NCBI GenBank assembly: GCA_963743825.1
Contig: CAVURC010000019.1
Span: 37,858-101,857, forward strand
Reading direction: 5' to 3'
Source: Ilumatobacteraceae bacterium
GTDB taxonomy: Bacteria > Actinomycetota > Acidimicrobiia > Acidimicrobiales > Ilumatobacteraceae
Length of the DNA: 64,000 nucleotides
In this document: positions 1,373 to 19,571 of the stretch, piece by piece
Position numbering within the stretch: the first letter of the stretch is position 1
Layout: every line of letters starts with the position of its first letter
Position numbers and translations under genes: made by a program
The notes under the pieces: generated by a model
What the model was told of the DNA's origin: nothing
The model's input: the letters and a program-made list of their open reading frames with translations, nothing else
Database searches by the model: none

Positions 1373-1476
1373 GCCCGACTCGTCGCCGGTGGCGGGGAAC
1401 CCGGCGGCGCCAAGGCGCCGTTGGAGGTCGCGAACTGCTTCTCCACGCTGACCCTCGGTCAGCGGGAGCAGGTTCT

Positions 1477-1815
1477 TCAGGGTGAGGTCGTGAGGAATTC
1501 GTCGAGCTCCTGGAGCAGGGCGCCCTTGCTCTTGGCGCCGACGAGGCGTTTGGCCACCTCACCACCAGAGAACACGAGCAGCGTCGGAATGCTCATCACG
1601 TTGTACCGCATGGCGAGGTCGGGGTTGTCATCGACATTGAGCTTGGCAACGGTGAGCTGCTCGGATCGCTCGCCGGCGATCTCCTCGAGGATCGGGGCGA
1701 TCTGCTTGCACGGCCCGCACCACTCGGCCCAGAAGTCGACGATGACAGGCTTGTCGGAGCCGATGATGGTCTCGTCGAAGGTATTGGACGACAGATTCAC
1801 GATGCCGTTGGCCAT
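1477..1815 (-). CDS. trxA: thioredoxin
   Basis: WCGPCK active site. Start taken at MANGIV (ATG 1815) with a GAAAGGA RBS; the longer ORF to 1860 is an N-terminal over-extension. Confidence 0.9.
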   Translation of the reverse strand: MANGIVNLSSNTFDETIIGSDKPVIVDFWAEWCGPCKQIAPILEEIAGERSEQLTVAKLNVDDNPDLAMRYNVMSIPTLLVFSGGEVAKRLVGAKSKGALLQELDEFLTTSP

Positions 1816-1924
1816 TGGGGGTCCTTTCTCAGCACTGCCTGGTGGCAAGACTAGATGCACCTCGGGTCAACCGGTCGGTGACACAGAACATTCCCGCCCG
1901 CGGCGCCGCAGTTGGTGCCCCGCC

Positions 1925-2878
1925 TCAGTGGTGGACGTTGGCCTCGAGCCAGCGCTCGGCATCGATGGCCGCCATGCATCCCGATCCGGCCGCCGTGATC
2001 GCCTGGCGGTACACGTCGTCCTGCACGTCGCCGCACGCGAACACGCCGTCGACATCGGTGTACGACGAATCGTGCTTCGTCACCAGGTAGCCCGTTGTCG
2101 GGTCCAAGTCGAGCTGATCGATGAACAGGTCGGTGTTCGGACGGTGTCCGATTGCCACGAACAACCCGGTCACGGGCAGCGTCGAGACCGAGCCGTCGAC
2201 GGTGTTGGTGACCTCCACACCGCTCACGCTCGTCTCACCGAAGATCTCGGTGACCCGGGAGTTCCAGAGGAACTCGATCTTCGGGTTGGCGAGTGCGCGA
2301 TCCTGCATGATCTTCGAGGCACGCAACTCGTCGCGGCGATGGATGATGGTGACCTTGTCGGCGAATTTCGTGAGGAACGTCGCCTCTTCGATGGCCGAAT
2401 CGCCGCCGCCGACGACCGCAATCTCGTGCCCTCGGAAGAAGAAGCCGTCACAGGTGGCGCACGTCGACAATCCATGGCCGATGAGTCGCTGTTCGGCCTC
2501 GAGGCCGAGCATCAGTGACTGGGCGCCCGTGCTGACGATGACGGCGTTGGCCAAGTACTCGTCGTCGCGGATCCAGATCCGGAAGGGTCGCTGGGAGAAG
2601 TCGACCTTCGTCACCTTCTCGGTGATGATCTCGGTACCGAACCTCGTGGCCTGCGCGCGCATGTTGGCCATCAGGTCGGGGCCCATGATGCCGTCGGGGA
2701 AGCCCGGGAAGTTCTCGACCTCGGTCGTCAGCATGAGCTGGCCGCCGGGTTGATCGCTGGTACTCGACGGTTCACCCTCGATGAGCAGGGGCGACAGGTT
2801 GGCTCGGGCGGTGTAGATCGCTGCGGTCAGGCCGGCAGGGCCCGATCCGATGATGATGACGTCACGGACGTCGGCCAT
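1925..2878 (-). CDS. trxB: thioredoxin-disulfide reductase
   Basis: IIIGSGPAGLTAAIY FAD motif, CATCDG redox-active site, and NAD(P)H motif GGGDSA. Confidence 0.9.
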   Translation of the reverse strand: MADVRDVIIIGSGPAGLTAAIYTARANLSPLLIEGEPSSTSDQPGGQLMLTTEVENFPGFPDGIMGPDLMANMRAQATRFGTEIITEKVTKVDFSQRPFRIWIRDDEYLANAVIVSTGAQSLMLGLEAEQRLIGHGLSTCATCDGFFFRGHEIAVVGGGDSAIEEATFLTKFADKVTIIHRRDELRASKIMQDRALANPKIEFLWNSRVTEIFGETSVSGVEVTNTVDGSVSTLPVTGLFVAIGHRPNTDLFIDQLDLDPTTGYLVTKHDSSYTDVDGVFACGDVQDDVYRQAITAAGSGCMAAIDAERWLEANVHH

Positions 2879-2938
2879 GGGGACTCCTCGAGTGCGTTGG
2901 GGGTTGGGAAGCGCGCAGTGGACGGACTGGCCGAGCGC

Positions 2939-3262
2939 TCAACTCGCGGCGGTGTTGCGCTTCTTGAACAGCCACACGCCGGCGATCGAGAAGACACCTC
3001 CGACAATGAAGTAACTCAGGTAGACGGCGCGTTCCCAGGTGGTGGCCAGTTCGAGCAGCGACTGCAATCCGCGCATCGCCATCACGAGCGCAATGGTGAG
3101 CGCGAACGCCCCGACGATCAGGGCGATCAGGCCGAAGACCACGCCGCGCGCCGCATAGACGAGGTTCTGCGTCGTCTTCGACCGCACCGTGTCGATGAAG
3201 CTGACGACGATGTCGGTGGTCTCGGTGGCCCAGTTCGGATCGGTGAGCGGATTTGCGGGCAT
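2939..3262 (-). CDS. small hypothetical membrane protein (2 TM helices)
   Basis: 107-aa ORF with two hydrophobic helices, sitting between trxB and the anti-sigma gene. Confidence 0.5.
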   Translation of the reverse strand: MPANPLTDPNWATETTDIVVSFIDTVRSKTTQNLVYAARGVVFGLIALIVGAFALTIALVMAMRGLQSLLELATTWERAVYLSYFIVGGVFSIAGVWLFKKRNTAAS

Positions 3263-3283
3263 GGCGGCGAGGTTAGCCGCCGC

Positions 3284-4120
3284 TCACGGAAGGCGCGCGC
3301 GGGCGACTTCGCGGCAGTCCGCCGCTTCGTACGCAATGGCCAGTTCACGGCTCTCGTCGACGCCGACGACCACGCTGGTGGTTCCGTATCGCGCCGGGCC
3401 GACGACGTAGTCGGCACCGAGGCACAACGGCCACTGTGCGGCGAGAATCGTCGCCTGCGAATCGGTGAGTCGGTCGTCGATCGATTCGCTGGTTGCGGCC
3501 GGCACCTCGGGGTCCTGCGGCGCACCGACGGCGTCGGAGGCGAAGATCCCGAGTTCCTCGGGCGTGTCGAGTTGCTCGAGTTCGGTCTCGGTCGGTGGCG
3601 CGGCATCGTTGATGCCGGTGTCGAGTTCGGCGCCGTCGGCGGCGGCGATCGCGGGACCCGGTGCTGACGGCGCCACCTCGTCGGCGACGATCGCGGTTTC
3701 GGCTTCGGTCGATTCGGCGAGCGCTGCGACCTCGGGTGCGCTGGTCACCTCGCTGGCCGATTGCGTCGCCGAGTCGTCGTCGGTGCCGGACGAGACGGTC
3801 TGCAAGACGATGCCACCGGCGAGCACGAGCACGAGGGCCGCTGCGGCACCCAGGAGCCGGCGATTCGTGTTCGGGCGTCGGCGCTCGGCGAGTGGGATGG
3901 GTGGTGCGGGCACTCGGTCCCACGCGTCGAGGGCATTCGCCAGCAGCGATTCGCGCACCGAGATCGACGACGGCTCGACGTCAGCGAGCAGCACGCGGAC
4001 GTAACGCAGCCGGTCGACTTCCACGAGCAGTGCCGGGTCGGCCTCGACACGGGCGCGCTCGTCGGCGGTCACGTCACCATCGAGGTACGCGCTCGCAAGC
4101 AGAGTCAGGTCGTCGTTCAT
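3284..4120 (-). CDS. anti-sigma factor (membrane-anchored, non-ZAS)
   Basis: N-terminal anti-sigma domain (LLASAYLDGDVTADERARVEADPALL), one TM segment and an Ala/Asp-rich extracytoplasmic tail. Its start overlaps the sigma stop (ATGA). Confidence 0.7.
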   Translation of the reverse strand: MNDDLTLLASAYLDGDVTADERARVEADPALLVEVDRLRYVRVLLADVEPSSISVRESLLANALDAWDRVPAPPIPLAERRRPNTNRRLLGAAAALVLVLAGGIVLQTVSSGTDDDSATQSASEVTSAPEVAALAESTEAETAIVADEVAPSAPGPAIAAADGAELDTGINDAAPPTETELEQLDTPEELGIFASDAVGAPQDPEVPAATSESIDDRLTDSQATILAAQWPLCLGADYVVGPARYGTTSVVVGVDESRELAIAYEAADCREVARARLP

Positions 4121-4752
4121 GTGCGCTCTGTTGGACGTTCGTCGGAGGGCGGTTGGTTCCCGGGCTCTGATGAAATCGGCAGGTCGAGGTCGAGGCGGAG
4201 TCGTGCGGCGAGGGTGGCTCGGCCCCGCGAGATACGTGATTTCACGGTCCCCACCGGAATGTCGAGCACCTCGGCGATCTCGGAATAATCGAGGTGTGCG
4301 ACGTCGCGGAGCACCACCGCGGTACGGAGGTCGTCGGGAAGTTCGGCGAGGGCTTCGTCGAGGATCAGGCGATCGCCGACACCGTCGACGTCGTGAGTGG
4401 CACGGTCGTCGGCGCGTTCGATCGCGCCGTCGTCACCGTCGTCGAGCCTCGGTCGCCGGTCGCGTTTTCGAAGTTCGTCGAGCGAGGCGTTCGTGGCGAT
4501 GCGGTACGCCCAGGTACCGAACGACGATCGGCCATCGAAGCGTGGAAGGTTGCGGACGATCTTGATGAGCGCCTCTTGGCAGGCATCGTCGGCGTCACGG
4601 CTGCCTCCGGCGATGCGACGACAGACCGCGTGGATCCGGTCGTAGTGCGCCCGCAGCAGTTGGTCGAGCGCGTTCCTGTCACCGCCCTGCGCGGCGGCAA
4701 CCAGTGCCTTGTCGTCGAGATGTGTGGAGATGCTCGGAGCGTAACGAACCGC
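4117..4752 (-). CDS. ECF RNA polymerase sigma factor (SigM-like); start codon unresolved
   Basis: Sigma-70 region 2 (DDKALVAAAQGGDRNALDQLL...FGTWAYRIATNASLDE) and region 4 (DDLRTAVVLRDVAHLDYSEIAEVLDIPVGTVKSRISRGR). No ATG/GTG/TTG between the upstream in-frame TGA (4753-4755) and region 2. Confidence 0.8.
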   Translation of the reverse strand, partial: AVRYAPSISTHLDDKALVAAAQGGDRNALDQLLRAHYDRIHAVCRRIAGGSRDADDACQEALIKIVRNLPRFDGRSSFGTWAYRIATNASLDELRKRDRRPRLDDGDDGAIERADDRATHDVDGVGDRLILDEALAELPDDLRTAVVLRDVAHLDYSEIAEVLDIPVGTVKSRISRGRATLAARLRLDLDLPISSEPGNQPPSDERPTERT

Positions 4753-6534
4753 TCAGTTCACGATGGCGATCTCACCGAGGCGTCCGCGATAGGGATTGGC
4801 GGTGGTGCAGGTGGCATCAGGGCCGAGTTCCTTGAGCATGATGAACATGTGGCGCGCCGGGGCGGGCGGGACGGCCGACGTGACCGTGCCCGTCTCGTCG
4901 GCAAACTGAGTGGCACCGAGTTCCGGCCCCCAGTCGCCGATGTTCGCCGGGATGGTCTCGGCGTCCGACGCGAAGAACGTCACCTGATAGGGCGCCGTCT
5001 GGAGATCGACCTGGAGCGCCTTCTGCATGGGAGCGTCGAAGGTGACCACCAGCCCCACGCCTCCCTTGCCGCCGAGGTACTTCGAGGAGTAGCACACGGT
5101 CCCCCACGACGTTGCCGGGTTGCCATCTGCAGTGGCGAACACGGCGTCACCGTCGTTCTCGCTGCCGTCACCGTCGGGGTCGTAGGCAGTGATGGTCGCG
5201 ATGGCGGTGCCGACGACCGCGGGTGGGGTGCTGCCGGCCGGTGCGGCAACGCTGCCCGCAGGGACCGCAGGCGTCGAGGCGACCGATTCGCCGCCACCGA
5301 ACTCCAAGTTGGCCCACAGCAGTGCACCGACACCGATGGCGGCGACGAGCAGCACCGCGACCACGGTGAAGGCCGGCTTCCACTCCTGGGTGAGTCCACG
5401 CGCCGGTTTGCCCCGAAGGTCGGCACCGCCCGGAGGGGTGAGTTCGTCATGGGCGCCGAGGGCGGCGAACGGGGTCGCGGTCGTCGTGGTCACCATCGGC
5501 GTGGTGCCGGTGTGGCCGACCTCGCCGGGGATCGCGCCGACGGTCGGCGCACCGGTCGGGGGGGTACTGGTTGCACGAACCCGATCGGATGCCCGGCCGA
5601 CCACGTCGGAGGGAGCGCGACGCAGGCGGCGCCCGCCGAACGGCGCCACGGGCGAGCGCTCGTAGGGGGTCGGATCGATCGCAGGCGGCCCCTCCTTCGC
5701 GGCGTCGCGCAGCGTGCTGACCAGCTCGGCCCCCGATGCCGGGCGTTGTGCGGGGTTGCGGGCGAGCAACTGGTGGATGACGATCACGAGCTTGGTGGGC
5801 AGCGTGGCGCGCAGACGCGTGAGGTCGGTGGGGTCGCGCTGCAGCCGGGCGAGTGCCGTGTCGGCGTCGGTCTCACCGAGGAACGGCACCCGGCCGGCCA
5901 GGCACTCGTACAGCACGAGTCCGAGCGAGTAGAGGTCGGCACGGCCGTCGAGCTTCTTGCCGCGCACCTGCTCGGGTGACAGGTACTTGGCGGTGCCCAT
6001 CATGATGTTGTCGCTGGTCAGGTCGGCTTCGGCCGACTGCAGACCCTTGGCGATGCCGAAGTCGGTCAGGAGCACCCGCCCGTCGGAGGTCATCATGATG
6101 TTGCCGGGCTTGACGTCGCGGTGCACGAAACCCGCAGCGTGGGCGTGGTCGAGCGCCGCGGCCACACAGGTGCCGATGTGACAGGTGAGTTCCGGACTCA
6201 GCCGCTTCTGGGTGTCGAGGACCTGGCGCAGGCTCTTGCCCTCCACCAGTTGCATCACGACTGCCTGGCGGCCGTCCTGCTCGAACACGTCGTGCACGGC
6301 GACGATGTTGGGATGGTTGAGGCTCGCCGCCGCGATGGCTTCACGTCGGAATCGTTCGGCCACCACGGGGTCGGTGGCCAACGAGGGCTTCAGCCATTTC
6401 ACGGCGACCTTGCGGTCGAGCGTGAGGTCGACCGCGAGCCACACTTCGGCCATGCCGCCCTGGGCGAGCATGCGTTGGAGTTCGTAGCGGTGCGCGATGA
6501 CCGTCGAGGTGGGTGGCGGAGCCGCAGCGGACAT
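4753..6534 (-). CDS. Ser/Thr protein kinase, membrane-anchored with extracytoplasmic C-terminal domain
   Basis: Hanks kinase motifs: VAVK, HRDVKPGN, DFG, SPE. One TM segment follows a Pro/Thr-rich linker, then an ~200-aa C-terminal domain. Confidence 0.85.
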   Translation of the reverse strand: MSAAAPPPTSTVIAHRYELQRMLAQGGMAEVWLAVDLTLDRKVAVKWLKPSLATDPVVAERFRREAIAAASLNHPNIVAVHDVFEQDGRQAVVMQLVEGKSLRQVLDTQKRLSPELTCHIGTCVAAALDHAHAAGFVHRDVKPGNIMMTSDGRVLLTDFGIAKGLQSAEADLTSDNIMMGTAKYLSPEQVRGKKLDGRADLYSLGLVLYECLAGRVPFLGETDADTALARLQRDPTDLTRLRATLPTKLVIVIHQLLARNPAQRPASGAELVSTLRDAAKEGPPAIDPTPYERSPVAPFGGRRLRRAPSDVVGRASDRVRATSTPPTGAPTVGAIPGEVGHTGTTPMVTTTTATPFAALGAHDELTPPGGADLRGKPARGLTQEWKPAFTVVAVLLVAAIGVGALLWANLEFGGGESVASTPAVPAGSVAAPAGSTPPAVVGTAIATITAYDPDGDGSENDGDAVFATADGNPATSWGTVCYSSKYLGGKGGVGLVVTFDAPMQKALQVDLQTAPYQVTFFASDAETIPANIGDWGPELGATQFADETGTVTSAVPPAPARHMFIMLKELGPDATCTTANPYRGRLGEIAIVN

Positions 6535-6601
6535 GACTGGGAGCGAACGCTAGCGGTGGCGGTGGCGGCGGTGGGGTCAATCCGACGCCTCGGCCGAGAC
6601 G

Positions 6602-7475
6602 TCAGGCGGGCGTGACCTGGAAGGCGACACCGATCGTTCCGCGGCCACCGTGGGTACCGATGACCGGGCCGATCTCGCCGACGACGATCTCTGCGGGATA
6701 GTGCTCTGCGAGCAACTCGACGAACAGGTCGACATCACTGCAGTCGGCGTGCATCACGGCGAGGTTCTCGATGTTGCCGTCGTAGCTCGTGACCTTGTCG
6801 ACCAGATACGACAGCGCCTTCGATCGGGTCCGTTGCTTGCCGGCCTGTTCGACGACTCCGCCGGTGACCTCGATGATCGGCTTGATCGACAGCGCAGTCG
6901 CCAGCATCGCCTTGGCGTTGCCGATGCGGCCACCCTTCTTGAGGTTGTCGAGTGTGTCGAGGGCCCCGAAGACGCGGGTGCGGTCGACCAGGTCGTGGGC
7001 GAGACGTTCGATGTCGTCGATGCCGTCGCCGTCGGTGGGCGGCGCGTGCGCAGGCGATGGCGATGGTGCCGAGGCCCATCGTGATCGTTCGGCTGTCGAC
7101 GACGCGCACGTCGAGGTCGATCGATTCGTCGGCGGCAATCGTTCGAGCGGCGAGCTGCGCAGATTGCATCGTGGCCGACAGCGCCGACGACAACGAGACG
7201 ACGAGCACGCTGCGCGCACCGTTGGCCGCAGCGTCACGGTAGACCAGTTCGTACTGGCCGGGGGCCGGCGCAGCGGTTTCGGGCAGTGTCGGAGAGTTGA
7301 CACATCGTGACCAGAACTCGGCGGTGGAGAGTTCCTCGCGGTCGACGAATTCCTCGTCGCCGAAACGGATCGTCAGCGGCACGATGACGATGCCGAGGTC
7401 GTCGGCGATCGATGCGGGGAGGTCACACGAGCTGTCGGTGACGATGACGACATCGTTGGAGTGCTGGGGGCTCAT
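6602..7475 (-). pseudogene. DegV family fatty-acid-binding protein, frameshifted near 7040-7050
   Basis: N-terminal DegV portion is in frame 7475 (MSPQHSNDVVIVTDSSCDLP...GLGTIAIACARAA). The C-terminal portion (DGDGIDDIERLAHDL...LKKGGRIGNAK...) is in frame 7303. Confidence 0.65.
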
Positions 7476-7481
7476 GGGGCG

Positions 7482-9672
7482 TCAGATTCTACTGCGCGCG
7501 CCGTTGGATGGCGGTCGCGTCCGTCGTCGTCGACCACGCGCTCGTCGCTTGGAACGCCAGTGCGAGAACCACCAGGTGAGCAGCACGAGGATGAACCCCC
7601 CGGTCAGGAGCTGGCCGAGCCCGGTGAAGCCCGTGACCCGCGAGGTCAGCGTGACCGGCTCGTCGATCGTGTCGCCTGCCGGCGTGGTGACCGTGAGGGT
7701 GATCGACGACGTGCCATTCGCGCGGGCCTCGACCGGAACGACGATCGTGGTTTCGTCGTTGGGGCGCAGGGTCACCTCCTGGTCGCCGTCGGGGAACTCG
7801 ACTTTCGACGACTCGAGGCGCATCGTCACGTTCAGCGGCTCGTTGCTGGAGTTGCCGAGCTGAATCTCGATCGTGCCGTTGCGGCCGGTCAGGGTGAACG
7901 TGAACGGCTCGGGCAGTTCGACGGCGTTCTCCAGCGCGTCGGCCTGAGCGACGAGTGCAGTCGTCGCCGCCTCGACGTCGGCATCGCTGTAGGCCGTCGA
8001 GATCAGTGCGTCGAGTTCGTTCGCCCACTCGGTCGGCCGGGGGTCGTCCGGCGGCAGCATCGACGCGACGCCGATCATTCGAGTTGCGGTCGCGTCGATC
8101 AACGCAACACGTTGGGAGAGTGACGGCCCGGCGACGTCGGGGAGTTCGACCGTCGACCGGCGCGCCGCCGTCGAGTTGTGTGTCGGTCACCCCGATGAGC
8201 GACGACGCAGCGGTGAAGCGCAGCGACGGCGTGGTCGCGACGAGGTCCTCCAGTCCGGCCAGGAGACGGGCGTCAGGTGTGGCGAGGTCGGGTGTCGTGA
8301 GGATCAAGCTGCGTTGGGCGGGTGGGCCGATGCGTTCCGTGTCGGCCTCGGCGCGGTCGATGAGGATCGTCGCTGCGGTCTGCACCGACCATTCGGTGGC
8401 CGTCGAGGTGGCCAGGATGTCGTCGGCGCCGGCCGGTGTGAGCTGCAGCGAGAGGGCGTCGACGATCAGGATCGGCAGTGTCCCACCGTCGGGGAGTTCG
8501 GCGTCGACGAAGAGATCGGTGTCGGGAAGCTGCGAACTCACCGTGTCGCGGTACAACTCGGCCGGCATCACCACGAAGCGGACGCCGAGATCGCGCAACT
8601 GCTGGGCACCTCCGGCGCTGAGCGCGTCGGTGGTGATCCACACGGTGCGCACGGCAGCCGCGGTGGGAACTGCCGCGGTCAGCAGTTCCTCACCGGCGTT
8701 GACCAGTCGGGTGTAGGTCTCGGCGCGTCCGGCCGCGACGGCCGACGAGACGTCGAGCGGCACGACCGGGAGCGCGACGAGTTCGTCACCTTCGAGCGCG
8801 GCGGCGAGGCGCTCGGCCCCCGCTGGTGTCGCCGCCACCTCTGCCACGAGCGTCGGCGGGACCTCGAGGGTGACTGGTGCGTCGAGCGTCGCCGCGAGGT
8901 CGACGGCTTCGTCGAGGGCTGTCTGGGCGGCTGCGCGTTCGGCCGAGGTTGCTCGTGGTGACGGTGAGGGGGTCACTGCGACGACGGACAGATCGATGGG
9001 TGGCGCCGGCGTCTCGGTCGGTCCCGGCAGTCGCTGCACGATGGTGCCGGCGGTGGCGATGATGTTGTCGTCGCGTGGATCACCGGTCTTGAGCTGCACG
9101 CGCAGGGGGTAGAGGCCTGGACGTTCGAACTTGAGCCGCTGCTCGACGCTGTCGACGACGTCGGTCTGGATCTCGAGTGTGAACTCGACGGATCCGTCGT
9201 CGCCGACTGTCGCACGTTCGCGGAGGTCGGTGATGGCGACGCCGTCGATGGCGCCGGTGAACGCGGTGGGGTCGACATCGCTGCCCACGAGCTCGTCGAC
9301 GTCGGCGCTGTTCGTGAGGGGCAGATAGTTCGTCACCTCGATCGTGAGCGGGATCGGCTCGGGAGCGTCGGGGGGCGTGCTGGTGTCGGCGGTGGTGTCG
9401 ACCGGTGCCTCGACCACCTCGTCGACCACTGCGGGCTGCACGGCGAGTTCGAGTGCATCGTCTGCGACGCCGACGAGCCGGTATCGAAGCTGGATGACTC
9501 CATCGGGTTCGAACGCGAAGCTCTGGCCGACGAGTTCGAGGCGTGGGGTCGTCGGCGTCACCTGAGTGGTTCGTCCGGTCGAGGCGTCGACGTTGCCGGA
9601 CAGCGTGAGCGCGGCGAGCACCACGACCGCTGATCCGAGCCCACGACACGACGATGCAGAGATCGGTCTCAT
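7482..9672 (-). pseudogene. large secreted/membrane-anchored protein (Rv3909-like), frameshifted near 8100-8160
   Basis: Starts MRPISASS with a signal peptide (ATGA overlap with the GNAT stop). The real C-terminus (TM anchor LLTGGFILVLLTWW plus basic tail) is in the other frame (ORF 7482..8102); the main frame degenerates into an Arg-rich tail. Confidence 0.6.
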
Positions 9673-10401
9673 CGCAGCGATCGTTCGAGGATCGTCAGGC
9701 GCTCCGGTCGTTCGATGAAGCCGAGCGATCGATAGAGGGCGAGCGCGGCGGTGTTGTCGGTTGCGGTGTTGACGAGCACCCGCTCGACGTTGCGCCGTCG
9801 CATCCAGTCGAGCGCATCGGCGACGAGGAGGCGGGCCAGCCCACGCCGTCGTGCGGAGGGCATCGACCGCGAGGCGCTGTACATAGCCCCACGTCGATGC
9901 TCGACCGCTGATCGAGAACGCCACCATCTGCCCGTCGTGGTGGACGCACCGGGCGCGGTATCGCGGCGTGGCGGTGACGATGTCGTGCAGTGCGGCAGCG
10001 TTGTTCGCCCACGGCGCCGGGAAGGCGTGTCGGTCGACGATCGCCGCGTCGTCGAGTTGCGACGGACGAAGCCGACGAAGCCGTGCGGCCGGCTGGTCGT
10101 GGTTGCGAGCCGTCGCGTCCGTCGCGTCCGCCGTGACGGTCAGATCGTCGAGTTCGAGGAGGCTGAGCGTGTCGATGACCTCGAAGCCGGCAGCGAGGAA
10201 CGCCGGGGCGGAGGACGGGAACAGGGCACCGGTGCGCAGCGTGGCGGCACCCTGCGCACGTGCGTCGGCGACCCACGACTCGACATGGTTCCGGTCGGGC
10301 ACCATGTGATGATCGAGCAGCACGAGATGCGCGACGTCGGCGTTGTCGGGCCATCGACCGAGACGAGCCCGGACGGGATGTTCGGCCGCCGTCGTGTTCA
10401 C
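9669..10401 (-). pseudogene. GNAT family N-acetyltransferase, frameshifted near 9868
   Basis: N-terminus in frame 10401 (...STWGYVQRLAVD). GNAT motif A and C-terminus (PSARRRGLARLLVADALDWMRRRNVERVLVNT...) in frame 9884. Confidence 0.6.
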
Positions 10402-10480
10402 GGCACTGAAGGTACTCGCACGAGTGAATGCGGCGACCGCACGGCGCCGGACGCGTCCGCGCCCGTCGTAGCCTGACGAC

Positions 10481-11944
10481 GTGGTCCCCGAACGATTGAC
10501 GCCGGTGTTGCGCGAGTTGGAACCTCTCGCGGAGAGGTTCCGGGCCGCCGGTCACCGCCTCTATCTCGTCGGTGGGACCGTGCGTGATCTGTTCGTGGCC
10601 GGCGATCGAGCCGATTTCGATCTGGATCTCACCACCGATGCGCGACCGCCGGAGATCAAGCGGTGCCTCGAAGGGTGGGCCGACGCGATCTGGAACCAGG
10701 GGGAGAAGTTCGGCACCATCGGCGCCCAACGCGTCGACCCTGCGACCGGTCGGGAGCGGATCTACGAGATCACGACGTTTCGAGCCGAGGCATACACCGA
10801 CGACTCCCGCAAGCCGCACGTGGTGTTCGCGGACGACATCGAGGCCGATCTCTCCCGGCGTGACTTCACCGTCAATGCCATGGCGTTGGAGCTGACCGGC
10901 GACGGTGATCTTCCGGCGTTGATCGATCCGTTCGGAGGTGTCGCCGATCTCGGGACGCGAACGTTGCGGACGCCGCTCGGCCCGGACGTGAGCTTCAGCG
11001 ACGACCCGCTGCGGATGCTGCGAGCGGCACGTTTCATCGCCGGCTACCAGCTCGAGCCGACCGACGATCTCGTGCAGGCGGTTCGCGACATGGCATCGCG
11101 CCTCGAGATCGTGTCGGCCGAACGAATCCGTGACGAACTCGACAAGCTGATGACGGTCGACCACCCGGCCGCCGGACTCTGGTTCCTCGTCGACACGGGT
11201 CTCGCCGATCAGTTCCTGCCCGAGTTGCCGGCCATGCGCCTCGAACACGACCCGATCCACCGTCACAAGGACGTGTTGTCGCACTCGATCGCCGTGGTCG
11301 AGAACGTGCGTCCGCCGCACGAGCATCCGGGGATCGTCGCCGGTGACGAGCCGACGTTCGACTTCCGTCGCACGAGGCTCGCGGCCCTGTTCCACGACGT
11401 CGGCAAGCCGCGCACGCGTGGCTATCTGGAGGGCAAGGGCACGACGTTCCATCATCACGATGCGGTCGGCGCCCGGATGACCCGCAAACGGATGAATGCG
11501 CTGCGCTACTCCAACGACGATGTCGCCGCGGTGACCGAACTCGTCGCCCTCCACCTGCGATTCCACACCTATTCGATGGGTTGGACCGACTCGGCGGTGC
11601 GGCGCTACGTGCGCGACGCCGGGCCGCTGTTGCGCGAACTCAACGTGCTCACGCGTTGCGACTGCACGACCCGCAACGCGAAGAAGGCGGCGCGTCTGTC
11701 GAAGCGGATGGACGAACTGGAGGAGCGCATCGCCGAACTGGAGGCCGCCGAGGAACTCGCGGCGCTGCGGCCTGAACTCGACGGCACGGCGGTGATGGAA
11801 CAGCTGGGCCTCACGCCGGGTCGCGAGGTGGGCGAGGCGATGCGCTTCCTGATGGAGGTCCGTCTCGACGAGGGCCTGCTCGGCGACGATGCGATCCGGA
11901 CGCGCCTCGACGAGTGGTGGGCGGCGCGCAGCATCCCCAGCTGA
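10481..11944 (+). CDS. cca: CCA tRNA nucleotidyltransferase (PolyA polymerase / HD domain family)
   Basis: PolA_pol head domain (GHRLYLVGGTVRDL, RDFTVNAMAL) and HD motif (LFHDVGKP). Positional equivalent of Rv3907c pcnA. Confidence 0.85.
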   Translation: MVPERLTPVLRELEPLAERFRAAGHRLYLVGGTVRDLFVAGDRADFDLDLTTDARPPEIKRCLEGWADAIWNQGEKFGTIGAQRVDPATGRERIYEITTFRAEAYTDDSRKPHVVFADDIEADLSRRDFTVNAMALELTGDGDLPALIDPFGGVADLGTRTLRTPLGPDVSFSDDPLRMLRAARFIAGYQLEPTDDLVQAVRDMASRLEIVSAERIRDELDKLMTVDHPAAGLWFLVDTGLADQFLPELPAMRLEHDPIHRHKDVLSHSIAVVENVRPPHEHPGIVAGDEPTFDFRRTRLAALFHDVGKPRTRGYLEGKGTTFHHHDAVGARMTRKRMNALRYSNDDVAAVTELVALHLRFHTYSMGWTDSAVRRYVRDAGPLLRELNVLTRCDCTTRNAKKAARLSKRMDELEERIAELEAAEELAALRPELDGTAVMEQLGLTPGREVGEAMRFLMEVRLDEGLLGDDAIRTRLDEWWAARSIPS

Positions 11945-11972
11945 CCTGGGCTCGTCGTCGTACCGTTGGGCG

Positions 11973-14276
11973 GTGGAATCGAAGGCTGACGGGACGTTTC
12001 GAGGATGGTGGTTGATCGTCCCGATCGTCGCGGTGTCGGTGACCCTGGTGGTCCTGGTGGTGCTGGCACTCGTGAGGGACGGCACCGATCCGCGCCCGAG
12101 CACCGTCGCAGCAGTCGCGGGAATCGGCCTGCTCGCCATCATCGCGGTGACTGCCACGGCTGTCGAGTCGCGTCGGATCGGGCACCGGTTCCGTCGCACG
12201 ATCGACGAACTCGAGCGCACGCAGGGCGAGATGCGCCGACTGCTCGACGATCTTCCCGATGCGGTCATGGGGCTCGACGAGCGTGGGGTCATCGAATCGG
12301 CCAATCGCCGCGCTGCGCTGCTCACCGGTCGGACGGTCGACGAGTTGGTCGGTCGCACGTTCCTCGAGATGATCGGCGATTCCGACCGTGACGTCGTCAC
12401 CGAGCGTTGGCACTTCGACGACCCGATGCCCGAGCCGCTCGACGGGACCGGCCCGATCGGCAATCACGTGCTGTTCGAACTGGTCGACGCGGACGGCGAG
12501 GCGCACCTCGTCGAAGCGTCGCTGCACCGCCCGTCGGTCGACGATGCTCGCACCACCGGGGGGCTCGTGGTGTTGTTGCGCGATGTCACCGATCGGGCCC
12601 GCAGTACCGTTGCCCTGGAACAGGCGCGCCGGCGTTTCCAACAGGCATTCCATTCGGCGCCGACCGGCATGGCGCTCGTCCGGCTCGATGACAACAGGAT
12701 CATCGACGCCAACCAGTCGCTGGCCGACATGCTCGATCGACCACTCGATTCGCTGATCGGAATGGGGATCCGCCAGATCACCCATCCCGACGATCTCCGT
12801 GCTGCTGCGACGCAACGTGCCCGGCTGGAGCTCGGCATCGCCGACACGTATCTCCTGGAGCAGCGGTATCTGCGCAGCGACGGCGAGTTCGTGTGGGCCC
12901 GCACGCGTGTGTCGGTCACCGAGGACGAGGGCGTGGCGCTCGCGATCACCCACATCGAAGACGTCACCGACCAGCGAATGGCCGCCGAGCGACTCACGCA
13001 TGCAGCGACGCACGACGACCTGACCGAACTCCCCAACCGAGCAGCACTCGTGGACCGGCTCGACGAGTTGCTCGCCGGAGCGATGCCGGGCCAGGTGTCG
13101 GTGCTCTTCATCGACCTCGACAACTTCAAGGTCGTCAACGACAGTCTCGGCCATGCTGTCGGCGACGAACTCCTCCGCGAGGTGGCCCGCCGGTTGCGCC
13201 ATGTGATGCGCGACACGGATCGACTCGCTCGCTTCGGTGGCGACGAGTTCGTCGTGTTCGTCGACGGTGGCGTCGACCCCGCGAAGGTCGCCGAGCGGTT
13301 GCGCCGCGAGGTGCAGCGGCCGGTGGTGATCGACGGTCACGAGTTGGTGACGACCGCCAGCATCGGGTTCGTCGTGAACAGCGCGCTCGGGCTCACCGCC
13401 GATGACCTGTTGCGTGATGCCGACGCGGCGATGTACCGGGCCAAGGCCGGTGGTCGCGACCGGGTCGAGGCGTTCACGGAGGAGACGCGGCGTGCGTCGA
13501 TTGCTGCCTTGCAGACGTCGAGCGAACTCCGACGCGGGCTCGAGCGGGGCGAAGTGGTGCCGTACTTCCAGCCGATCGTCGATCTCGACGGCGGCCAGGT
13601 CGTCGGCTTCGAGGTGTTGGCGCGGTGGTTGCATCCCGACCGCGGTCTGCTCGTGCCGGGCCAATTCCTCCCGATGGCCGAAGAGTCCGGTTTGATGGTC
13701 GACCTCGGTGCTCGAATCCTGCGGGACTCGTTGGCGCAACTCGCCCACTGGCGAGCCGTCGGCCTGCGGTTCGCCGACTGCTCGCTGTCCGTCAACGTCG
13801 CGACACAGCAGCTGATCGATTCCAGCTTCCTCGATCTGGTGCACGACGCGCTCGGCGAGACCGGGATCGACGCCGATTCGCTGTGGTTGGAGATCACCGA
13901 GACGGCCCTGATGGCTGACACCAACGCGGCAGGCAACGCCCTGCGCGACCTTCGCGGGCTCGGGCTGCACCTGTCGGTCGACGACTTCGGCACCGGGTAC
14001 TCGTCGCTCACCTACCTCAAGCGATTCCCGGTCGAGGCCATCAAGGTCGACCGGTCGTTCGTGACCGGGCTCGGCCTGGAGGCCGACGACACCTCGATCG
14101 TCGAAGCCGTCGTCCGTCTCGGACACTCGCTCGGGTTGAGCGTGGTCGCAGAGGGTGTCGAGACTCCGTTGCAGCTCAGCCGGTTACGCGAACTGGGCTG
14201 CGACAAGGGCCAGGGCTACCTGTTCGGTCGTCCTCGCCCGGCCGGCATCACCGCCGCCGAACGTGCCGACGCCTGA
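11973..14276 (+). CDS. membrane-anchored PAS-PAS-GGDEF-EAL c-di-GMP signalling protein
   Basis: N-terminal TM helix, two PAS-like regions, GGDEF (RFGGDEFVV) and EAL (EVLARW ... DDFGTGYSSL). Start set at GTG 11973, after the pcnA stop; the ORF-track start 11889 would overlap pcnA. Confidence 0.8.
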   Translation: MESKADGTFRGWWLIVPIVAVSVTLVVLVVLALVRDGTDPRPSTVAAVAGIGLLAIIAVTATAVESRRIGHRFRRTIDELERTQGEMRRLLDDLPDAVMGLDERGVIESANRRAALLTGRTVDELVGRTFLEMIGDSDRDVVTERWHFDDPMPEPLDGTGPIGNHVLFELVDADGEAHLVEASLHRPSVDDARTTGGLVVLLRDVTDRARSTVALEQARRRFQQAFHSAPTGMALVRLDDNRIIDANQSLADMLDRPLDSLIGMGIRQITHPDDLRAAATQRARLELGIADTYLLEQRYLRSDGEFVWARTRVSVTEDEGVALAITHIEDVTDQRMAAERLTHAATHDDLTELPNRAALVDRLDELLAGAMPGQVSVLFIDLDNFKVVNDSLGHAVGDELLREVARRLRHVMRDTDRLARFGGDEFVVFVDGGVDPAKVAERLRREVQRPVVIDGHELVTTASIGFVVNSALGLTADDLLRDADAAMYRAKAGGRDRVEAFTEETRRASIAALQTSSELRRGLERGEVVPYFQPIVDLDGGQVVGFEVLARWLHPDRGLLVPGQFLPMAEESGLMVDLGARILRDSLAQLAHWRAVGLRFADCSLSVNVATQQLIDSSFLDLVHDALGETGIDADSLWLEITETALMADTNAAGNALRDLRGLGLHLSVDDFGTGYSSLTYLKRFPVEAIKVDRSFVTGLGLEADDTSIVEAVVRLGHSLGLSVVAEGVETPLQLSRLRELGCDKGQGYLFGRPRPAGITAAERADA

Positions 14277-14280
14277 TCTG

Positions 14281-14850
14281 TCAGGAGCCTTCCTTGCGGG
14301 CGCGGAGCACGAGAGTGGTCGGTGATGGCTGCGTCGCCGACGCACCGAGTTCGATGACGTGATCGACACGGAAGTTCGAGCGGTTGAGCGCGGTGAACCA
14401 CGAGCCGATCGTCCGCTCGTCCGCGCCGTAGGGATGGCCGGCGTCGACGCTGGCGAACGGGTGCGGCATCGAGAGCACGAACGGCATGCTCGGCTTGAGG
14501 ATGCGGTGGACCTGGCGCAACAGGCGGCCGAGGTCGTCGACATCGCCGATCGTGTGCGCAGCGAGGACGACCTCGCAGGAGGTCGATGCGATGTCGCCGA
14601 GGTCGGCGAGGTCGGTCTCGAGGCACTGGACGGGCACCTCGGCTGACGCCGCACGCCTGCGGGTCTCGGCGATCCGTGCGGCGTCGGTGTCGACGGCGAT
14701 CGCCTTCGCACCTGCCCGGGCGAACCCGATCGAGTTGTACCAGGGTGAGATGCCGAGCTCGACGGCGCGGCGTCCGTCGCTGACATCGCCGCAGAGACGT
14801 AACTCGTCGTCGTCTGGCGCACCGGGTCCGAAGTTGATGTTGGCGACCAC
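14281..14850 (-). CDS. class I SAM-dependent methyltransferase
   Basis: Rossmann motif RAVELGISPWYNSIGFARAGAKAIAVDTD and acidic loop CLETDLADL. The upstream part of the 502-aa ORF is an antisense over-extension. Start at GTG 14850 is tentative. Confidence 0.65.
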   Translation of the reverse strand: MVANINFGPGAPDDDELRLCGDVSDGRRAVELGISPWYNSIGFARAGAKAIAVDTDAARIAETRRRAASAEVPVQCLETDLADLGDIASTSCEVVLAAHTIGDVDDLGRLLRQVHRILKPSMPFVLSMPHPFASVDAGHPYGADERTIGSWFTALNRSNFRVDHVIELGASATQPSPTTLVLRARKEGS

Positions 14851-14931
14851 GCACCCAGTGTGCCCGACCTGGCCGACGATCACGGGGATCACACCGTGCA
14901 CGGCGATGTCGAGCGGATAGTGTCCGAGGCC

Positions 14932-15327
14932 ATGGCGTTCACCGTCGGTGCACTCCGCGGGTCCGATGGTTCGCGTGGCCTGATCGACCATCGGTTGGCG
15001 CGCCGCATGCTCATCGCCCAGGTGAAGAAGGGGCGGGTTCCGCTCGATCAGGTGTGCGATGCGCATCCGGAGCTGATCCGTGCCGCTCGCAACGTGGGCA
15101 CGCAGACCACGATGCGTTGTCCGATCTGTGAAGAAGCCGATCTCAAGCTCGTCACCTACGTGTTCGGTCCCCGCCTGTCGGCTCAGGGACGTTGTGTGTC
15201 GACCGCCAAGGAGATGCGCCAACTCAACGACCGTCGCGACGAACTCAGTGCCTATGTCGTCGAGGCGTGCGTCGAGTGTCGCTGGAACCATCTGCTGCGG
15301 ATCATTCCCGTCGGCGGCCGGCCGTAG
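14932..15327 (+). CDS. DUF5318-like conserved actinobacterial protein (4-Cys)
   Basis: GLIDHRLARRMLIAQVKKGRVPLDQVCDAHPELIRAA...CPICEE...CVECRWNHLL pattern. Start at MAFTV (ATG 14932). Confidence 0.6.
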   Translation: MAFTVGALRGSDGSRGLIDHRLARRMLIAQVKKGRVPLDQVCDAHPELIRAARNVGTQTTMRCPICEEADLKLVTYVFGPRLSAQGRCVSTAKEMRQLNDRRDELSAYVVEACVECRWNHLLRIIPVGGRP

Positions 15328-15372
15328 ATCACGTGGGTTGCTTCGTTCAGCGGTTGCTCGTTCGATCCGTCG

Positions 15373-15987
15373 GTGCGCATCGGTGCGATCGTCCTGCTCG
15401 GCGTCGGTTGTTCCGGCGAGGCCGCCACGGTCGACGACTCGACCGAGGCAACGGTCGCATCGAGCCCGGTGTCCGTGGGCGAGGTCGAGGAAGACGTCGA
15501 GGGAGGGGTCGAGGTCGAGGTCGAGCAGGATGGTCCATCCGGTCAGCAGCCCGAGGGGTTCTCGACGATGATGGCGCAGATCACCGAGGCCGACGGCGAG
15601 ATCTGCGAGGTCTGCGTGTGGCTGGCCGACACGTCCGACGAACGGGCGCGCGGGCTCATGGGTGTGACCGACCTCGGCGATGCCGTCGGGATGGTGTTCC
15701 GGTTCGAGGAGCCGATCGACGGATCCTTCTACATGTTCCAGACGCCGACGCCGCTGTCGATTGCGTGGTTCGGTCCCGATGGCACGCACGTCGGCTCGGC
15801 CGACATGGCGCCGTGCCTCGACACCCCGGCGGGCGACTGCCCGCTGTACTCGCCGGGAGCCGAGTACGACCTCGCACTCGAGGTGTTCGAGGGTGGACTC
15901 GCCGATCTCGGTGTCGGCCCCGGGTCACAGCTCGAACTCATCGACGGCACCGAGGCCGATGGCTGTCCGCTCGCCGCCCCCGAGTAA
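15373..15987 (+). CDS. DUF192 family lipoprotein
   Basis: Lipobox LLGVGCSG. DUF192 core (EVCVWLADTSDERARGLMGV...MVFRFEE...FYMFQTP). Confidence 0.7.
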   Translation: MRIGAIVLLGVGCSGEAATVDDSTEATVASSPVSVGEVEEDVEGGVEVEVEQDGPSGQQPEGFSTMMAQITEADGEICEVCVWLADTSDERARGLMGVTDLGDAVGMVFRFEEPIDGSFYMFQTPTPLSIAWFGPDGTHVGSADMAPCLDTPAGDCPLYSPGAEYDLALEVFEGGLADLGVGPGSQLELIDGTEADGCPLAAPE

Positions 15988-15991
15988 CCGA

Positions 15992-16040
15992 GCTGCGATG
16001 AGTTTCGCGAGCACCCCCTGCACCTGGATCTCATCGCAGC
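15992..16040 (+). terminator. 11-bp perfect inverted repeat (GCTGCGATGAG...CTCATCGCAGC, 27-nt loop) directly after DUF192 stop
   Basis: Exact complementarity read from the sequence. Sits between DUF192 and the rpsF promoter region. Confidence 0.4.
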
Positions 16041-17084: not shown

Positions 17085-17534
17085 ATGGCAAGCAAGAAGA
17101 ACAAGGCGCGCAGCGCCCGTGACCTCAACCCCCGGAAGTTCAAGAAGAAGACCAGCGTCCTGGTCATCGACAAGGTCGAGTTCATCGACTACAAGGACGT
17201 CGATCTCCTGAGCCGCTTCATGAGCGACCGCGCCAAGATCAAGAACCGGCGTGTTGCCGGCAACACGCTGCAGCAGCAGCGTGAGATCGCCAACGCCGTG
17301 AAGGTCGCCCGTGAAATGGCGTTGCTTCCGTACGCCAAGCGTGTCGCGTCGACCCGCACCGGTGGCCGAGGTCGTGACGGTGGCCGCGAAGGCGGTCGTG
17401 ACGGTGGCCGCGATCGCGAAACGAGCTTGAGCGACAGTGTCAACGACACCGCCAACGACACCATCGTCGACGACGAGTTGATCGACGATCTCGACATCTC
17501 GATCGACGCCGCTGCCGAGACCGAGGAGGCCTGA
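17085..17534 (+). CDS. rpsR: 30S ribosomal protein S18 with ~65-aa Gly/Arg-rich plus acidic C-terminal extension
   Basis: Canonical S18 core ending ...[11 protein letters not shown], then [18 protein letters not shown] and an acidic tail. The extension contains a 24-nt tandem DNA repeat (gtcgtgacggtggccgcga x2 at 17371-17413). Confidence 0.8.
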
Positions 17535-17536
17535 TC

Positions 17537-17983
17537 ATGAAGGTCATTCTTCGTTCCGATCTCGATGGTCTCGGCAAGCGTGGCGACATCGTCGAGGTGG
17601 CCGACGGCCATGCGCGCAACTTCTTGTTCCCGAAGGGCCACGCGATCGTGGCCTCCGACGGTGCGGTCGAGCAGGCCGGCCAGATGCGCCAGGCCCGCGA
17701 TCAGCGCGACTCCAGCGCCCGTGAAGCTGCGACCACCATTGCCAGCACGCTCGTGCCCAAGGTGATCACGGTGTCGGCCAAGGCCGGCCCCGAAGGCAAG
17801 CTCTTCGGTTCGATCACGTCGGCTGACGTGGTTGCCGCCGTCCACGAGCAGACCGACATCGAGCTCGATCGTCGTCAGATCGAAGTCGACGTGATCAAGA
17901 CTGTCGGTCAGCACACGGTGACGGCGTCGCTGCACAACGACGTGTCGTTCCCGATCACCATCGACGTCGTCGCAGCCAACTGA
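17537..17983 (+). CDS. rplI: 50S ribosomal protein L9
   Basis: [34 protein letters not shown]. Confidence 0.9.
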
Positions 17984-17995
17984 CCGACGTCGCAC

Positions 17996-18016
17996 GGCCT
18001 GGCACACGCCAGGTCC
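17996..18016 (+). terminator. hairpin CCTGGC-ACAC-GCCAGG after rplI
   Basis: 6-bp GC stem 13 nt after the rplI stop. Confidence 0.35.
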
Positions 18017-18057
18017 GATGTCGACAAGTGTGGTGTGAGACCCTTGGTTCAACGCGC

Positions 18058-18158
18058 TTGCCCACAGGTTGTGCACAGACTGTCGGTCCACAGGATTCGA
18101 GAGTTGTCCACAGGCGTTCAACAGGCAAGACCCAGGGTTGTTCCTCTTCCATCGCACA
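18058..18158 (+). promoter_or_regulatory. cluster of 5-6 DnaA-box-like 9-mers upstream of dnaB
   Basis: TTGCCCACA (18058), TTGTGCACA (18069), CGGTCCACA (18084), TTGTCCACA (18104, perfect), GTTCAACAG (18115), ATCGCACA (18151), all on the same strand 30-130 nt upstream of dnaB ATG (18186). Confidence 0.5.
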
Positions 18159-18185
18159 GGAAACCCCTGAGAGAGTGGGATCCCC

Positions 18186-19571
18186 ATGTCGATCGATCGA
18201 GAACTCGGAACCAACCGCACTGAGCGCAGTGGTAGTGCCACAAGCCGTGGCGGGCGCGTGCCTCCCCACAACCTGCAGGCCGAGGAGTCGGTGCTCGGCG
18301 CACTGCTGTTGTCGCGTGACGCCATCGGCGTCGTCGGCGAGGCCGGGCTCAACGTCCGTGACTTCTACAGCCCTGCGCACCAGCAGATCTTCGACTCGGT
18401 CCGCTCGCTGTATTCGTCGTCGGGCCCCGTCGACGTGGTCACGGTTGCCGACGAGCTGCGCCGCCACGGACTGCTCGACGAGATCGGTGGCATCGCGCGG
18501 CTGAACGACCTGCAGAACGCCACGCCGTCGGTGTCGGGTGCCGAACACTATGCCCGCATCGTGATGGACACGGCGCTGCTGCGACGCCTGATCCAGACGG
18601 CCGGCGAGATCACCGACCTCGCCTTCAGTGAGCCCGACGACGTCACCAAGGCCGTCGACCTCGCCGAGTCGAAGATGTTCGAAGTGGCCGAGGATCGTGT
18701 GGTCGATTCGACCCGCCAGATCCAGGAACTCCTCAACGAGACGATGGATCAACTCGAGGAGAACTACGAGCGCGGCGACACCATCACCGGTGCGGCAACC
18801 GGCTACGACGATCTCGACGAACTGCTGTCGGGTCTCCAGCCGAGCACCCTGAACATCGTCGGTGCCCGCCCGGCGATGGGAAAAACCAGTTTCGGGTTGG
18901 GTATGGCGACCCACATTGCGAAGCATTCGGCCAAGCCGGTGCTCGTGTTCTCGCTCGAGATGGGACACTCGGAACTGACGCAGCGCATCCTCGCGAGCGA
19001 GGCGAAGGTCGACTCGACGAAGTTGCGCACCGGCAAGCTCAGCGAAAGCGACTGGTCGAAGATCGGGCTCGCGGTCGGTCGGTTGGAAGTGCCGTTGTTC
19101 CTCGACGACAACCCGCAGGTCACGGTGATGGAGATCCGTGCCAAGGCACGGCGCATCAAGGCCCAGCACGGCGGACTGGCGCTGATCATGATCGATTACC
19201 TGCAGCTGATGAGCGGCAGTGGGCGCTCGGAGAACCGCCAGCTCGAAGTCAGCGAGATCAGTCGAAACCTGAAGGTGCTCGCCCGTGAGCTGGAGGTGCC
19301 GATCGTTGCGCTCAGCCAGCTGAGCCGAAACCTCGAGGCCCGGTCGGACAAACGTCCGATGCTGGCCGACCTGCGCGAGTCGGGCTCGCTCGAACAGGAC
19401 GCCGACGTGGTGATGTTCCTCTACCGCGACGAGGTCTACAACCCCGAGTCGCCCGACAAGGGCTCGGCCGAGGTGATCGTCTCGAAGCATCGATCCGGCC
19501 CGATCGGCACCAAGCGACTGGTCTTCCTCGGCCAGTACACGAGATTCGACAACGCCGCCCGCTCGATGTGA
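18186..19571 (+). CDS. dnaB: replicative DNA helicase DnaB (intein-free)
   Basis: N-terminal DnaB domain (HNLQAEESVLGALLL), Walker A GARPAMGKTSF, and RecA-like C-terminal domain. Confidence 0.9.
   Translation: MSIDRELGTNRTERSGSATSRGGRVPPHNLQAEESVLGALLLSRDAIGVVGEAGLNVRDFYSPAHQQIFDSVRSLYSSSGPVDVVTVADELRRHGLLDEIGGIARLNDLQNATPSVSGAEHYARIVMDTALLRRLIQTAGEITDLAFSEPDDVTKAVDLAESKMFEVAEDRVVDSTRQIQELLNETMDQLEENYERGDTITGAATGYDDLDELLSGLQPSTLNIVGARPAMGKTSFGLGMATHIAKHSAKPVLVFSLEMGHSELTQRILASEAKVDSTKLRTGKLSESDWSKIGLAVGRLEVPLFLDDNPQVTVMEIRAKARRIKAQHGGLALIMIDYLQLMSGSGRSENRQLEVSEISRNLKVLARELEVPIVALSQLSRNLEARSDKRPMLADLRESGSLEQDADVVMFLYRDEVYNPESPDKGSAEVIVSKHRSGPIGTKRLVFLGQYTRFDNAARSM

Follow-up and report, generated by a model that had tools for sequence, protein, structure and literature searches.

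A phased, single-orientation array of predicted DnaA boxes between rplI and dnaB in an Ilumatobacteraceae bacterium

The space between rplI and dnaB on a 64-kb stretch of Ilumatobacteraceae DNA (64,000 nucleotides, hereafter the window) contains an array of DnaA-box sites that is genuine and evolutionarily conserved. The array is the Acidimicrobiia counterpart of a known mycobacterial DnaA target and thus represents a type of element already described. In mycobacteria, DnaA is documented to bind upstream of dnaB, and what is new here is the compact, strictly phased form that the sites take in Acidimicrobiia. Judged from the sequence and from comparison with related loci, the array likely serves as a DnaA-controlled promoter region for dnaB and possibly also as a sink for DnaA.

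RESULTS

The array and its surroundings

The sites were compared with the DnaA-box consensus, which is TTATCCACA, or TTGTCCACA in high-G+C Actinobacteria, and were scored with a matrix built from related loci (the family matrix, described below) and with a matrix of M. tuberculosis DnaA boxes (the Mtb matrix). The features of the region are as follows.

17537..17983, + strand: rplI (ribosomal protein L9), with Pfam Ribosomal_L9_N and Ribosomal_L9_C; last gene of rpsF-ssb-rpsR-rplI, 5' of the array
17985..18023, + strand: strong hairpin directly 3' of the rplI stop codon; probable terminator, no T-tract
18058..18066, + strand: box A, TTGCCCACA(gg); 1 mismatch; family matrix 12.4, Mtb matrix 13.3
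18069..18077, + strand: box B, TTGTGCACA(ga); 1 mismatch; 11 bp past box A; family matrix 13.2, Mtb matrix 14.5
18084..18092, + strand: box C, CGGTCCACA(gg); 2 mismatches; family matrix 13.6
18104..18112, + strand: box D, TTGTCCACA(gg); perfect; family matrix 18.1, the maximum of the window; anchor of the contiguous proximal array
18115..18123, + strand: box E, CGTTCAACA(gg); 4 mismatches; 11 bp past box D; family matrix 9.2; strong box in relatives at the same lattice position (-71)
18126..18134, + strand: lattice position E', CAAGACCCA(gg); degenerate; reads ...tCACAGG in relatives (L008, L017, and L014 compared); on the 11-12 bp lattice
18138..18146, + strand: lattice position F, TTGTTCCTC; 4 mismatches; TTATCCACT or TTGTCCACT in L013 and L015
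18150..18160, + strand: lattice position G, CATCGCACAgg (9-mer CATCGCACA); 5 mismatches; -36 from the ATG; the most position-conserved box of the family, with invariant C.CAG columns
18167..18181, + strand: gagagagtgggat, purine-rich and putatively Shine-Dalgarno-like, in the dnaB leader; relatives have similar purine-rich sequences
18186..19571, + strand: dnaB, replicative helicase, 461 aa, with Pfam DnaB and DnaB_C

Every box of the array lies on the dnaB strand (+), and boxes A to D match the consensus with 0 to 2 mismatches. The sites form a pair (18058, 18069), a single site (18084), and a contiguous run (18104, 18115, 18126, 18138, 18150) that opens with the perfect box and continues with progressively weaker sites. 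The array thus has about 8 lattice positions, 4 good and 4 weak, and the lattice ends 27 nt 5' of the start codon. An initial annotation had described five to six clustered same-strand boxes, one perfect and the others with 1 or 2 mismatches. The dense cluster is real on the strength of its four good boxes (0 of 200 simulations; see below), one box is indeed perfect (18104), and those at 18058, 18069, and 18084 have 1 or 2 mismatches, but the fifth and sixth boxes are poor matches, with 4 mismatches at 18115 and 5 at 18150. Boxes E and G share with the consensus only the (C/A)ACAGG end. The spacings that had been given, 11, 15, 20, and 11 nt from 18058 through 18069, 18084, and 18104 to 18115, are correct, but the cluster does not end about 30 nt before dnaB: its final CACAGG extends to 18160, which leaves 25 nt to the ATG. 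Moreover, the array is longer than had been noticed, and good boxes of relatives fall in register with its positions 18115, 18126, 18138, and 18150. The proximal sites of the window itself, with 4 or 5 mismatches, are very degenerate and may not bind.

Farther upstream, ribosomal protein S18 (17085-17534) is 149 aa long, and its Pfam domain covers residues 30 to 81. Its C-terminal extension of ~60 residues has RGG/GRD repeats first and then a strongly acidic tail.

Clustering beyond chance

Clusters as dense as this one did not arise in simulated DNA. Across 200 Markov-simulated 64-kb sequences, four same-strand sites with at most 2 mismatches, or three with at most 1, never fell within 60 bp (0 of 200), and the simulated maxima were 3 and 2 sites, respectively. 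Half of the sites with at most 1 mismatch in the whole 64 kb (4 of 8) fall in 18019-18112. By the family matrix, 4 of the 6 top-scoring sites of the 64 kb belong to the dnaB array, a count biased in favor of the arrays by the training of the matrix on these very arrays. The independent Mtb matrix (Hicks 2020, S10 table; PMC7738170) gave only two clusters in the window at a score of at least 13, the dnaB array and 413-444. Only that threshold was informative; at a low threshold with scores summed over sliding windows, the matrix was loose and did not discriminate.

The other cluster is small (401-452) and lies in the intergenic region 247-475, between convergent genes for ParB (C terminus, 1-246) and a cwlM-like PG_binding_1 protein (476-1372, - strand). 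It consists of a perfect TTATCCACA at 425-433 (-), TTGCGCACA at 413 (-), TCGTGCACA at 444 (-), and AAACCCACA at 401 (+), and the perfect box is kept in four left-side contigs described below (L082-L085). No RNA family was detected when the whole window was searched with Rfam.

Conservation in Acidimicrobiia

DnaB of the window is 91% identical to that of an Ilumatobacter metagenome-assembled genome (MAG), and its next relatives are from Acidimicrobiia. We drew dnaB loci from metagenomes and from genomes, with a single genome for each species; 28 non-redundant loci were of Acidimicrobiia type, and a matrix built from the 28 upstream regions converged on gTT(A/G)TCCACAGg. With this family matrix, 7.3 kb of upstream DNA contained 92 dnaB-strand sites and 10 opposite-strand sites, against 144 sites in the remaining 2 x 170 kb of the 28 loci, for an upstream enrichment of about 30-fold. 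When near-perfect boxes were counted by a plain 9-mer criterion within 350 bp upstream of dnaB, at least two + strand boxes were present at 16 of 27 Acidimicrobiia loci and at 1 of 125 loci of other lineages (Fisher p = 1e-13). Good boxes were absent at four more distant loci (L005, L007, L010, and L018).

The composition of the boxes is that of DnaA sites. Among the 92 sites, the core T-C-C-A-C-A is invariant, and position 3 holds A at 42 of them and G at 33. The lower-G+C relatives (L009 and L013-L015) carry the canonical universal TTATCCACA at equivalent positions. A box sequence that shifts to TTATCCACA with lower G+C behaves as a DnaA box does, and such behavior would be unexpected for an unrelated operator.

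The spacing of the boxes is likewise conserved. Distances between successive sites (n = 96) were concentrated at 11-12 bp (30), 20-24 bp (31), and 32-35 bp (14), which are multiples of about 11.5 bp, and shuffled sequences used as a control yielded almost no sites. In ~17 of the 28 loci, the first base of the final box lies between -33 and -39 relative to the start codon, most commonly at -36, and many of the 28 have a strong box at -71. Because the last box keeps its register with the start codon, control of the gene is probably at least one selected function of the array.

Some of the sampled records deserve comment in their own right. The L009 and L015 loci come from MAG records labeled Bifidobacterium and have an Acidimicrobiia-type rplI-dnaB locus with the same box array; their DnaB proteins are 62% and 54% identical, respectively, to that of the window, their G+C content is about 0.53, and the taxonomic labels look wrong. 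An unrelated metagenomic contig (L156, 2150-2480; DnaB 45% identical, G+C 0.58) has four DnaA boxes in the region 5' of dnaB, with a divergent MatE transporter gene on the other side: TTGTCCACAgg, an inverted TGTATCCACAG, TTATCCACG, and TTATCCACA. There may, from this contig, be more than one origin of a link between DnaA and dnaB.

A probable oriC to the left of the window

No dnaA gene was found within the 64-kb window. Contigs of the same or closely related strains that extend about 8.5 kb farther left were reached by exact-sequence look-up of the thioredoxin encoded at 1477-1815, and one of them (L081) is 98.8% identical to the window. Exact look-ups with the cwlM-like and trxB products gave no match, as the public contig belongs to a strain of 98.8% identity. 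The gene order left of the window is parB (whose C terminus is window 1-246), parA, rsmG, jag, yidC, and rnpA/rpmH, and then, on the other strand, dnaA, dnaN, and recF. The dnaA-dnaN spacer, about 7 kb left of the window start (L084, 18820-19090), has boxes in both orientations, including TTGTCCACC, TTGTCCCCA, and cAATCCACAg. After cAATCCACAG (L084 19027), the sequence CTA CTA CTG reads 3'-GAT GAT GAC-5' on the other strand, a candidate for DnaA-trios, and an AT-richer stretch comes next. By these features, the spacer is probably the conventional oriC, about 25 kb left of the dnaB array. The dnaA promoter region of the same contig has TTGTCCACA twice and ATGTCCACA once (1 mismatch), at 17247, 17380, and 17392. 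Thus, the box motif of the dnaB array is also found at both oriC and the dnaA promoter of the same species, and the predicted site strength of the dnaB array by the family matrix is at least that of oriC.

Across window 1-16000 and the left-side contig L082, the gene order is pcnA - DUF6049 - kinase - ECF sigma - trxB - trxC - cwlM-like - parB - parA - rsmG - jag - yidC - rnpA - rpmH / dnaA, which we take to mirror the region left of the origin on the M. tuberculosis map. The rpsF-ssb-rpsR-rplI-dnaB cluster is here fused directly beside that region, which places dnaB only about 25 kb from oriC. In L082, L083, and L085, dnaA and several other genes (parB, trxB, and dnaN) are split into at least two called open reading frames each, likely by frameshift errors of assembly.

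DnaA as the candidate binding protein

The species encodes a DnaA with canonical motifs. The intact protein of L084 (459 aa) carries GLGKTHL, IRELEGAL, and GGRDHTTVIHA, such that Walker A, the sensor motif, and the domain IV DNA-binding signature are all canonical; the roles of the residues in these motifs are established from work in E. coli. Moreover, the high-affinity E. coli oriC boxes R1 (gTTATCCACAgg) and R4 (gTTATCCACAgt), gTTATCCACAg, have the same G flanks as the boxes of the window, and the repeated CACAGG core is accounted for by G residues that flank the 9-mer. The sequence evidence supports the interpretation of the window sites as DnaA boxes.

The corresponding region in mycobacteria is bound by DnaA. 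A genome-wide map of DnaA binding is available (Hicks et al., 2020, PLoS Pathog; PMC7738170), in which M. tuberculosis IDAP-seq in vitro gave its most enriched windows at 60175-60200, in Rv0057, which lies between rplI and dnaB. The strongest DnaA peak of M. smegmatis ChIP-seq was dnaB-rplI, at 225-fold compared to 44-fold at oriC (PMC7738170). The DnaA I282T mutant binds the dnaB site more weakly and is the only one to underexpress dnaB (log2 -0.70; PMC7738170). We found Mtb-type and Nocardia loci with the N-terminal sequence of M. tuberculosis DnaB, rebuilt from a PDB alignment, followed by exact-protein matches. The Mtb-type locus (L166) has + strand boxes at 2705, 2770, 2781, and 2815 between rplI and dnaB, with an 11-bp pair at 2770/2781 (TGATCCACAggTTCTCCACA). 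The Nocardia locus (L168) has + strand boxes at 2496, 2631, 2696, 2707, 2739, and 2750, with 11-bp pairs at 2696/2707 and 2739/2750, and an extra - strand box at 2516. A Pseudonocardia match to the DnaB N-terminal domain (L169) was rejected as a helicase paralog of a mobile element, beside Prim-Pol and HTH_36 genes, and not the chromosomal dnaB. The initial annotation had suggested either DnaA-dependent regulation of dnaB or a DnaA-titrating locus, and both the canonical boxes of relatives and DnaA binding at the corresponding mycobacterial site lend support to that suggestion.

The dnaB promoter

The array appears to occupy the promoter space of dnaB. The predicted RNA fold of 17980-18060 has an energy of -39.1 kcal/mol (z = -3.1) and contains the rplI-proximal hairpin, and L001 has at the equivalent position a 17-bp hairpin and then TGCTTTT, immediately 5' of its first box. 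Because a terminator-like hairpin follows rplI both in the window and in L001, dnaB probably has a promoter of its own, inside the array. That the dnaB mRNA is leadered is supported by the purine-rich, Shine-Dalgarno-like sequences 5' of the start codons. Scans of the window, L001, and L088 for sigma-70-type promoters found nothing recognizable. A conserved CTAGC between the last two boxes of relatives was considered as a -10 element and dropped, as it is absent in the window and its -35 spacing is unconvincing. The rplI-dnaB spacer (17984-18185, 202 bp) contains zero TA dinucleotides, and a -10 element of the TANNNT type is therefore impossible there.

DISCUSSION

How DnaA might act at dnaB is suggested by the layout of the array. 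We propose that the rplI-dnaB spacer is a helically phased, one-orientation DnaA-box array that fills the promoter and leader space of dnaB. If DnaA binds in Ilumatobacter as the boxes predict, the first sites to be occupied would be the well-matched distal ones at 18058, 18069, and 18084 and, most of all, the perfect match at 18104. As DnaA accumulates, probably in its ATP form, it would spread cooperatively along the lattice of about 11.5 bp through the weak sites from 18115 to 18150. Occupancy of the array would then set dnaB transcription by the level of the initiator and couple helicase synthesis to it. The sign of control would most likely be activation, by analogy with mycobacteria, and possibly repression once the promoter-proximal weak sites fill. 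Control may be biphasic, as the mycobacterial mutant points to activation and DnaA on the sites over the promoter and start region should repress. Finally, an array of about 8 sites at this distance from oriC would also sequester DnaA and would be duplicated soon after initiation.

Whether control of the gene or control of replication is primary is less simple. The array could be mainly a high-capacity DnaA sink or inactivating site near oriC, of the kind of datA, the B. subtilis clusters, or D78, with its location at dnaB incidental. We consider this possible but rather unlikely, and it is compatible with regulation of dnaB. A sink would be in keeping with some 8 phased sites at a distance from oriC of only about 25 kb, with a predicted strength of these sites at least equal to that of oriC in the same species, and with the corresponding M. 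smegmatis peak at 5-fold above oriC. Moreover, oriC-proximal DnaA-box clusters act negatively in B. subtilis (PMC3245932), and negative action is reported at second hand for S. coelicolor (D78, Smulczyk-Krawczyszyn 2006, as cited in PMC3479198). The last box, however, holds its register with the dnaB start across relatives whose DnaB proteins are only about 57% identical, which points to a constraint from transcription or translation, beyond titration. Furthermore, dnaB expression is altered in the mycobacterial DnaA mutant, and every box follows the orientation of the gene. We therefore favor control of dnaB by DnaA, with sequestration as a possible additional effect.

That a protein other than DnaA reads the sites is very improbable. 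Tandem direct repeats with an 11-bp period (spacing peak at 11-12 bp) could form the operator of another direct-repeat binder, most plausibly an OmpR-family regulator such as MtrA, that recognizes CACAGG; the resemblance to DnaA boxes would then be a coincidence. MtrA binds 9-nt direct repeats spaced by 2 nt and in mycobacteria targets oriC and dnaA (PMC6265350), and several of the 92 family sites have a weakly conserved 5' half beside a nearly invariant CACAG. The MtrA half-site nGTnACc (Gorla 2018, PMC6265350), however, does not match the TCCACA core, which has one extra base between T and AC, nor does the A/G variation at position 3 fit it. Relatives have full canonical TTATCCACA 9-mers, the same motif recurs at the dnaA promoter and oriC of the species, the G flanks are as in E. 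coli R1 and R4, and DnaA itself is found on the corresponding mycobacterial site both in vitro and in vivo. Thus, the unrelated CACAGG-binding regulator that the initial annotation had entertained fails, in its MtrA/OmpR-type candidate, on half-site sequence. Least credible of all is a reading of the array as an additional or vestigial origin of replication, or as one half of a bipartite origin. Dense same-orientation boxes are of the type that builds DnaA oligomers at origins, and a helicase gene is adjacent, but the sequence after the last box (aaacccctgagagagtgggatcccc) lacks GAT-type trios in every frame as well as any AT-rich stretch that could serve as an unwinding element, and we conclude from this that the array is not an origin. 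Moreover, the + strand of the window is the leading strand (positive GC skew), the skew does not change sign at 18 kb, and the cumulative skew rises across the window with no minimum there, while a conventional oriC with boxes in two orientations, candidate trios, and an AT-richer stretch probably lies between dnaA and dnaN.

Control of dnaB by DnaA through the array would matter beyond this locus. The DnaA site at mycobacterial dnaB is the strongest of the genome, yet it has hardly been studied, and the same predicted link between DnaA and dnaB in Acidimicrobiia, a separate class, suggests that the coupling may be old and strongly selected in Actinomycetota. With about 100 bp, 8 lattice positions, and graded affinities, the array is a clean, compact natural template on which to study how DnaA oligomers bound to duplex DNA control a promoter. 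It also gives reason to ask whether replication timing, in this phylum that lacks the well-known regulators, is set at the dnaB locus and not by factors next to oriC. We speculate, while considering it rather unlikely, that the phased dnaB array is the main replication-timing device of actinobacteria: a DnaA-ATP-sensing filament platform, retained from Acidimicrobiia to Mycobacterium, that meters helicase synthesis and is the dominant DnaA sink, duplicated minutes after initiation. If so, the array would fill the role that datA/Hda/SeqA or YabA/Soj have in other phyla, and the last box would keep its place relative to the start codon because the end of a DnaA oligomer touches RNA polymerase directly.

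The mycobacterial rplI-dnaB region (PMC7738170) occupies the same slot in the rpsF-ssb-rpsR-rplI-dnaB cluster, within tens of kilobases of oriC, and has several boxes on the dnaB strand that include 11-bp pairs, as in the window. In the Mtb-type locus, however, the boxes are less numerous and more widely dispersed, at a distance of about 180-300 nt 5' of dnaB and within the annotated Rv0057, whereas the Acidimicrobiia array is compact, follows the lattice of about 11.5 bp, and ends 27 nt from the start codon. As the distance from box to start differs, the mechanism need not be identical. Hicks et al. remarked on agreement with Caulobacter, in which DnaA is bound upstream of dnaB (PMC7738170). 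The C. crescentus DnaA regulon includes dnaB (cited in PMC7738170; review, PMC8203912), and there the initiator likewise controls a replisome gene via upstream boxes. At the Caulobacter targets there are one or a few boxes and no phased multibox array, and the lineage is unrelated; the Caulobacter and actinobacterial links between DnaA and dnaB probably arose independently.

Clusters of boxes outside but near oriC are known from other bacteria. The DnaA-box clusters of B. subtilis (PMC3245932, PMC2533591), the IHF-dependent datA of E. coli, and D78 of S. coelicolor resemble the window array in this placement. Clusters of this sort bind with high affinity, and in B. subtilis some also regulate the adjacent gene (PMC3245932, PMC2533591). 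Paired DnaA sites are preferred genome-wide (PMC11317965). Clusters like datA, D78, and those of B. subtilis are recognized by at least 4 to 5 DnaA boxes outside but near the origin, and the window array has 4 good and 4 weak ones about 25 kb from oriC.

The arrays of E. coli oriC, reportedly made of closely spaced DnaA sites in one orientation (Rozgaja et al., 2011), are built much like the array described here. Their 9-mers are 2-3 bp apart (11-12 bp period), share one orientation, and place a strong anchor beside weak sites, as in the window. The E. coli architecture supports cooperative DnaA-ATP oligomers, and the window array may do the same. Whereas the E. coli oriC array adjoins an unwinding element, the window array adjoins the start of a gene.
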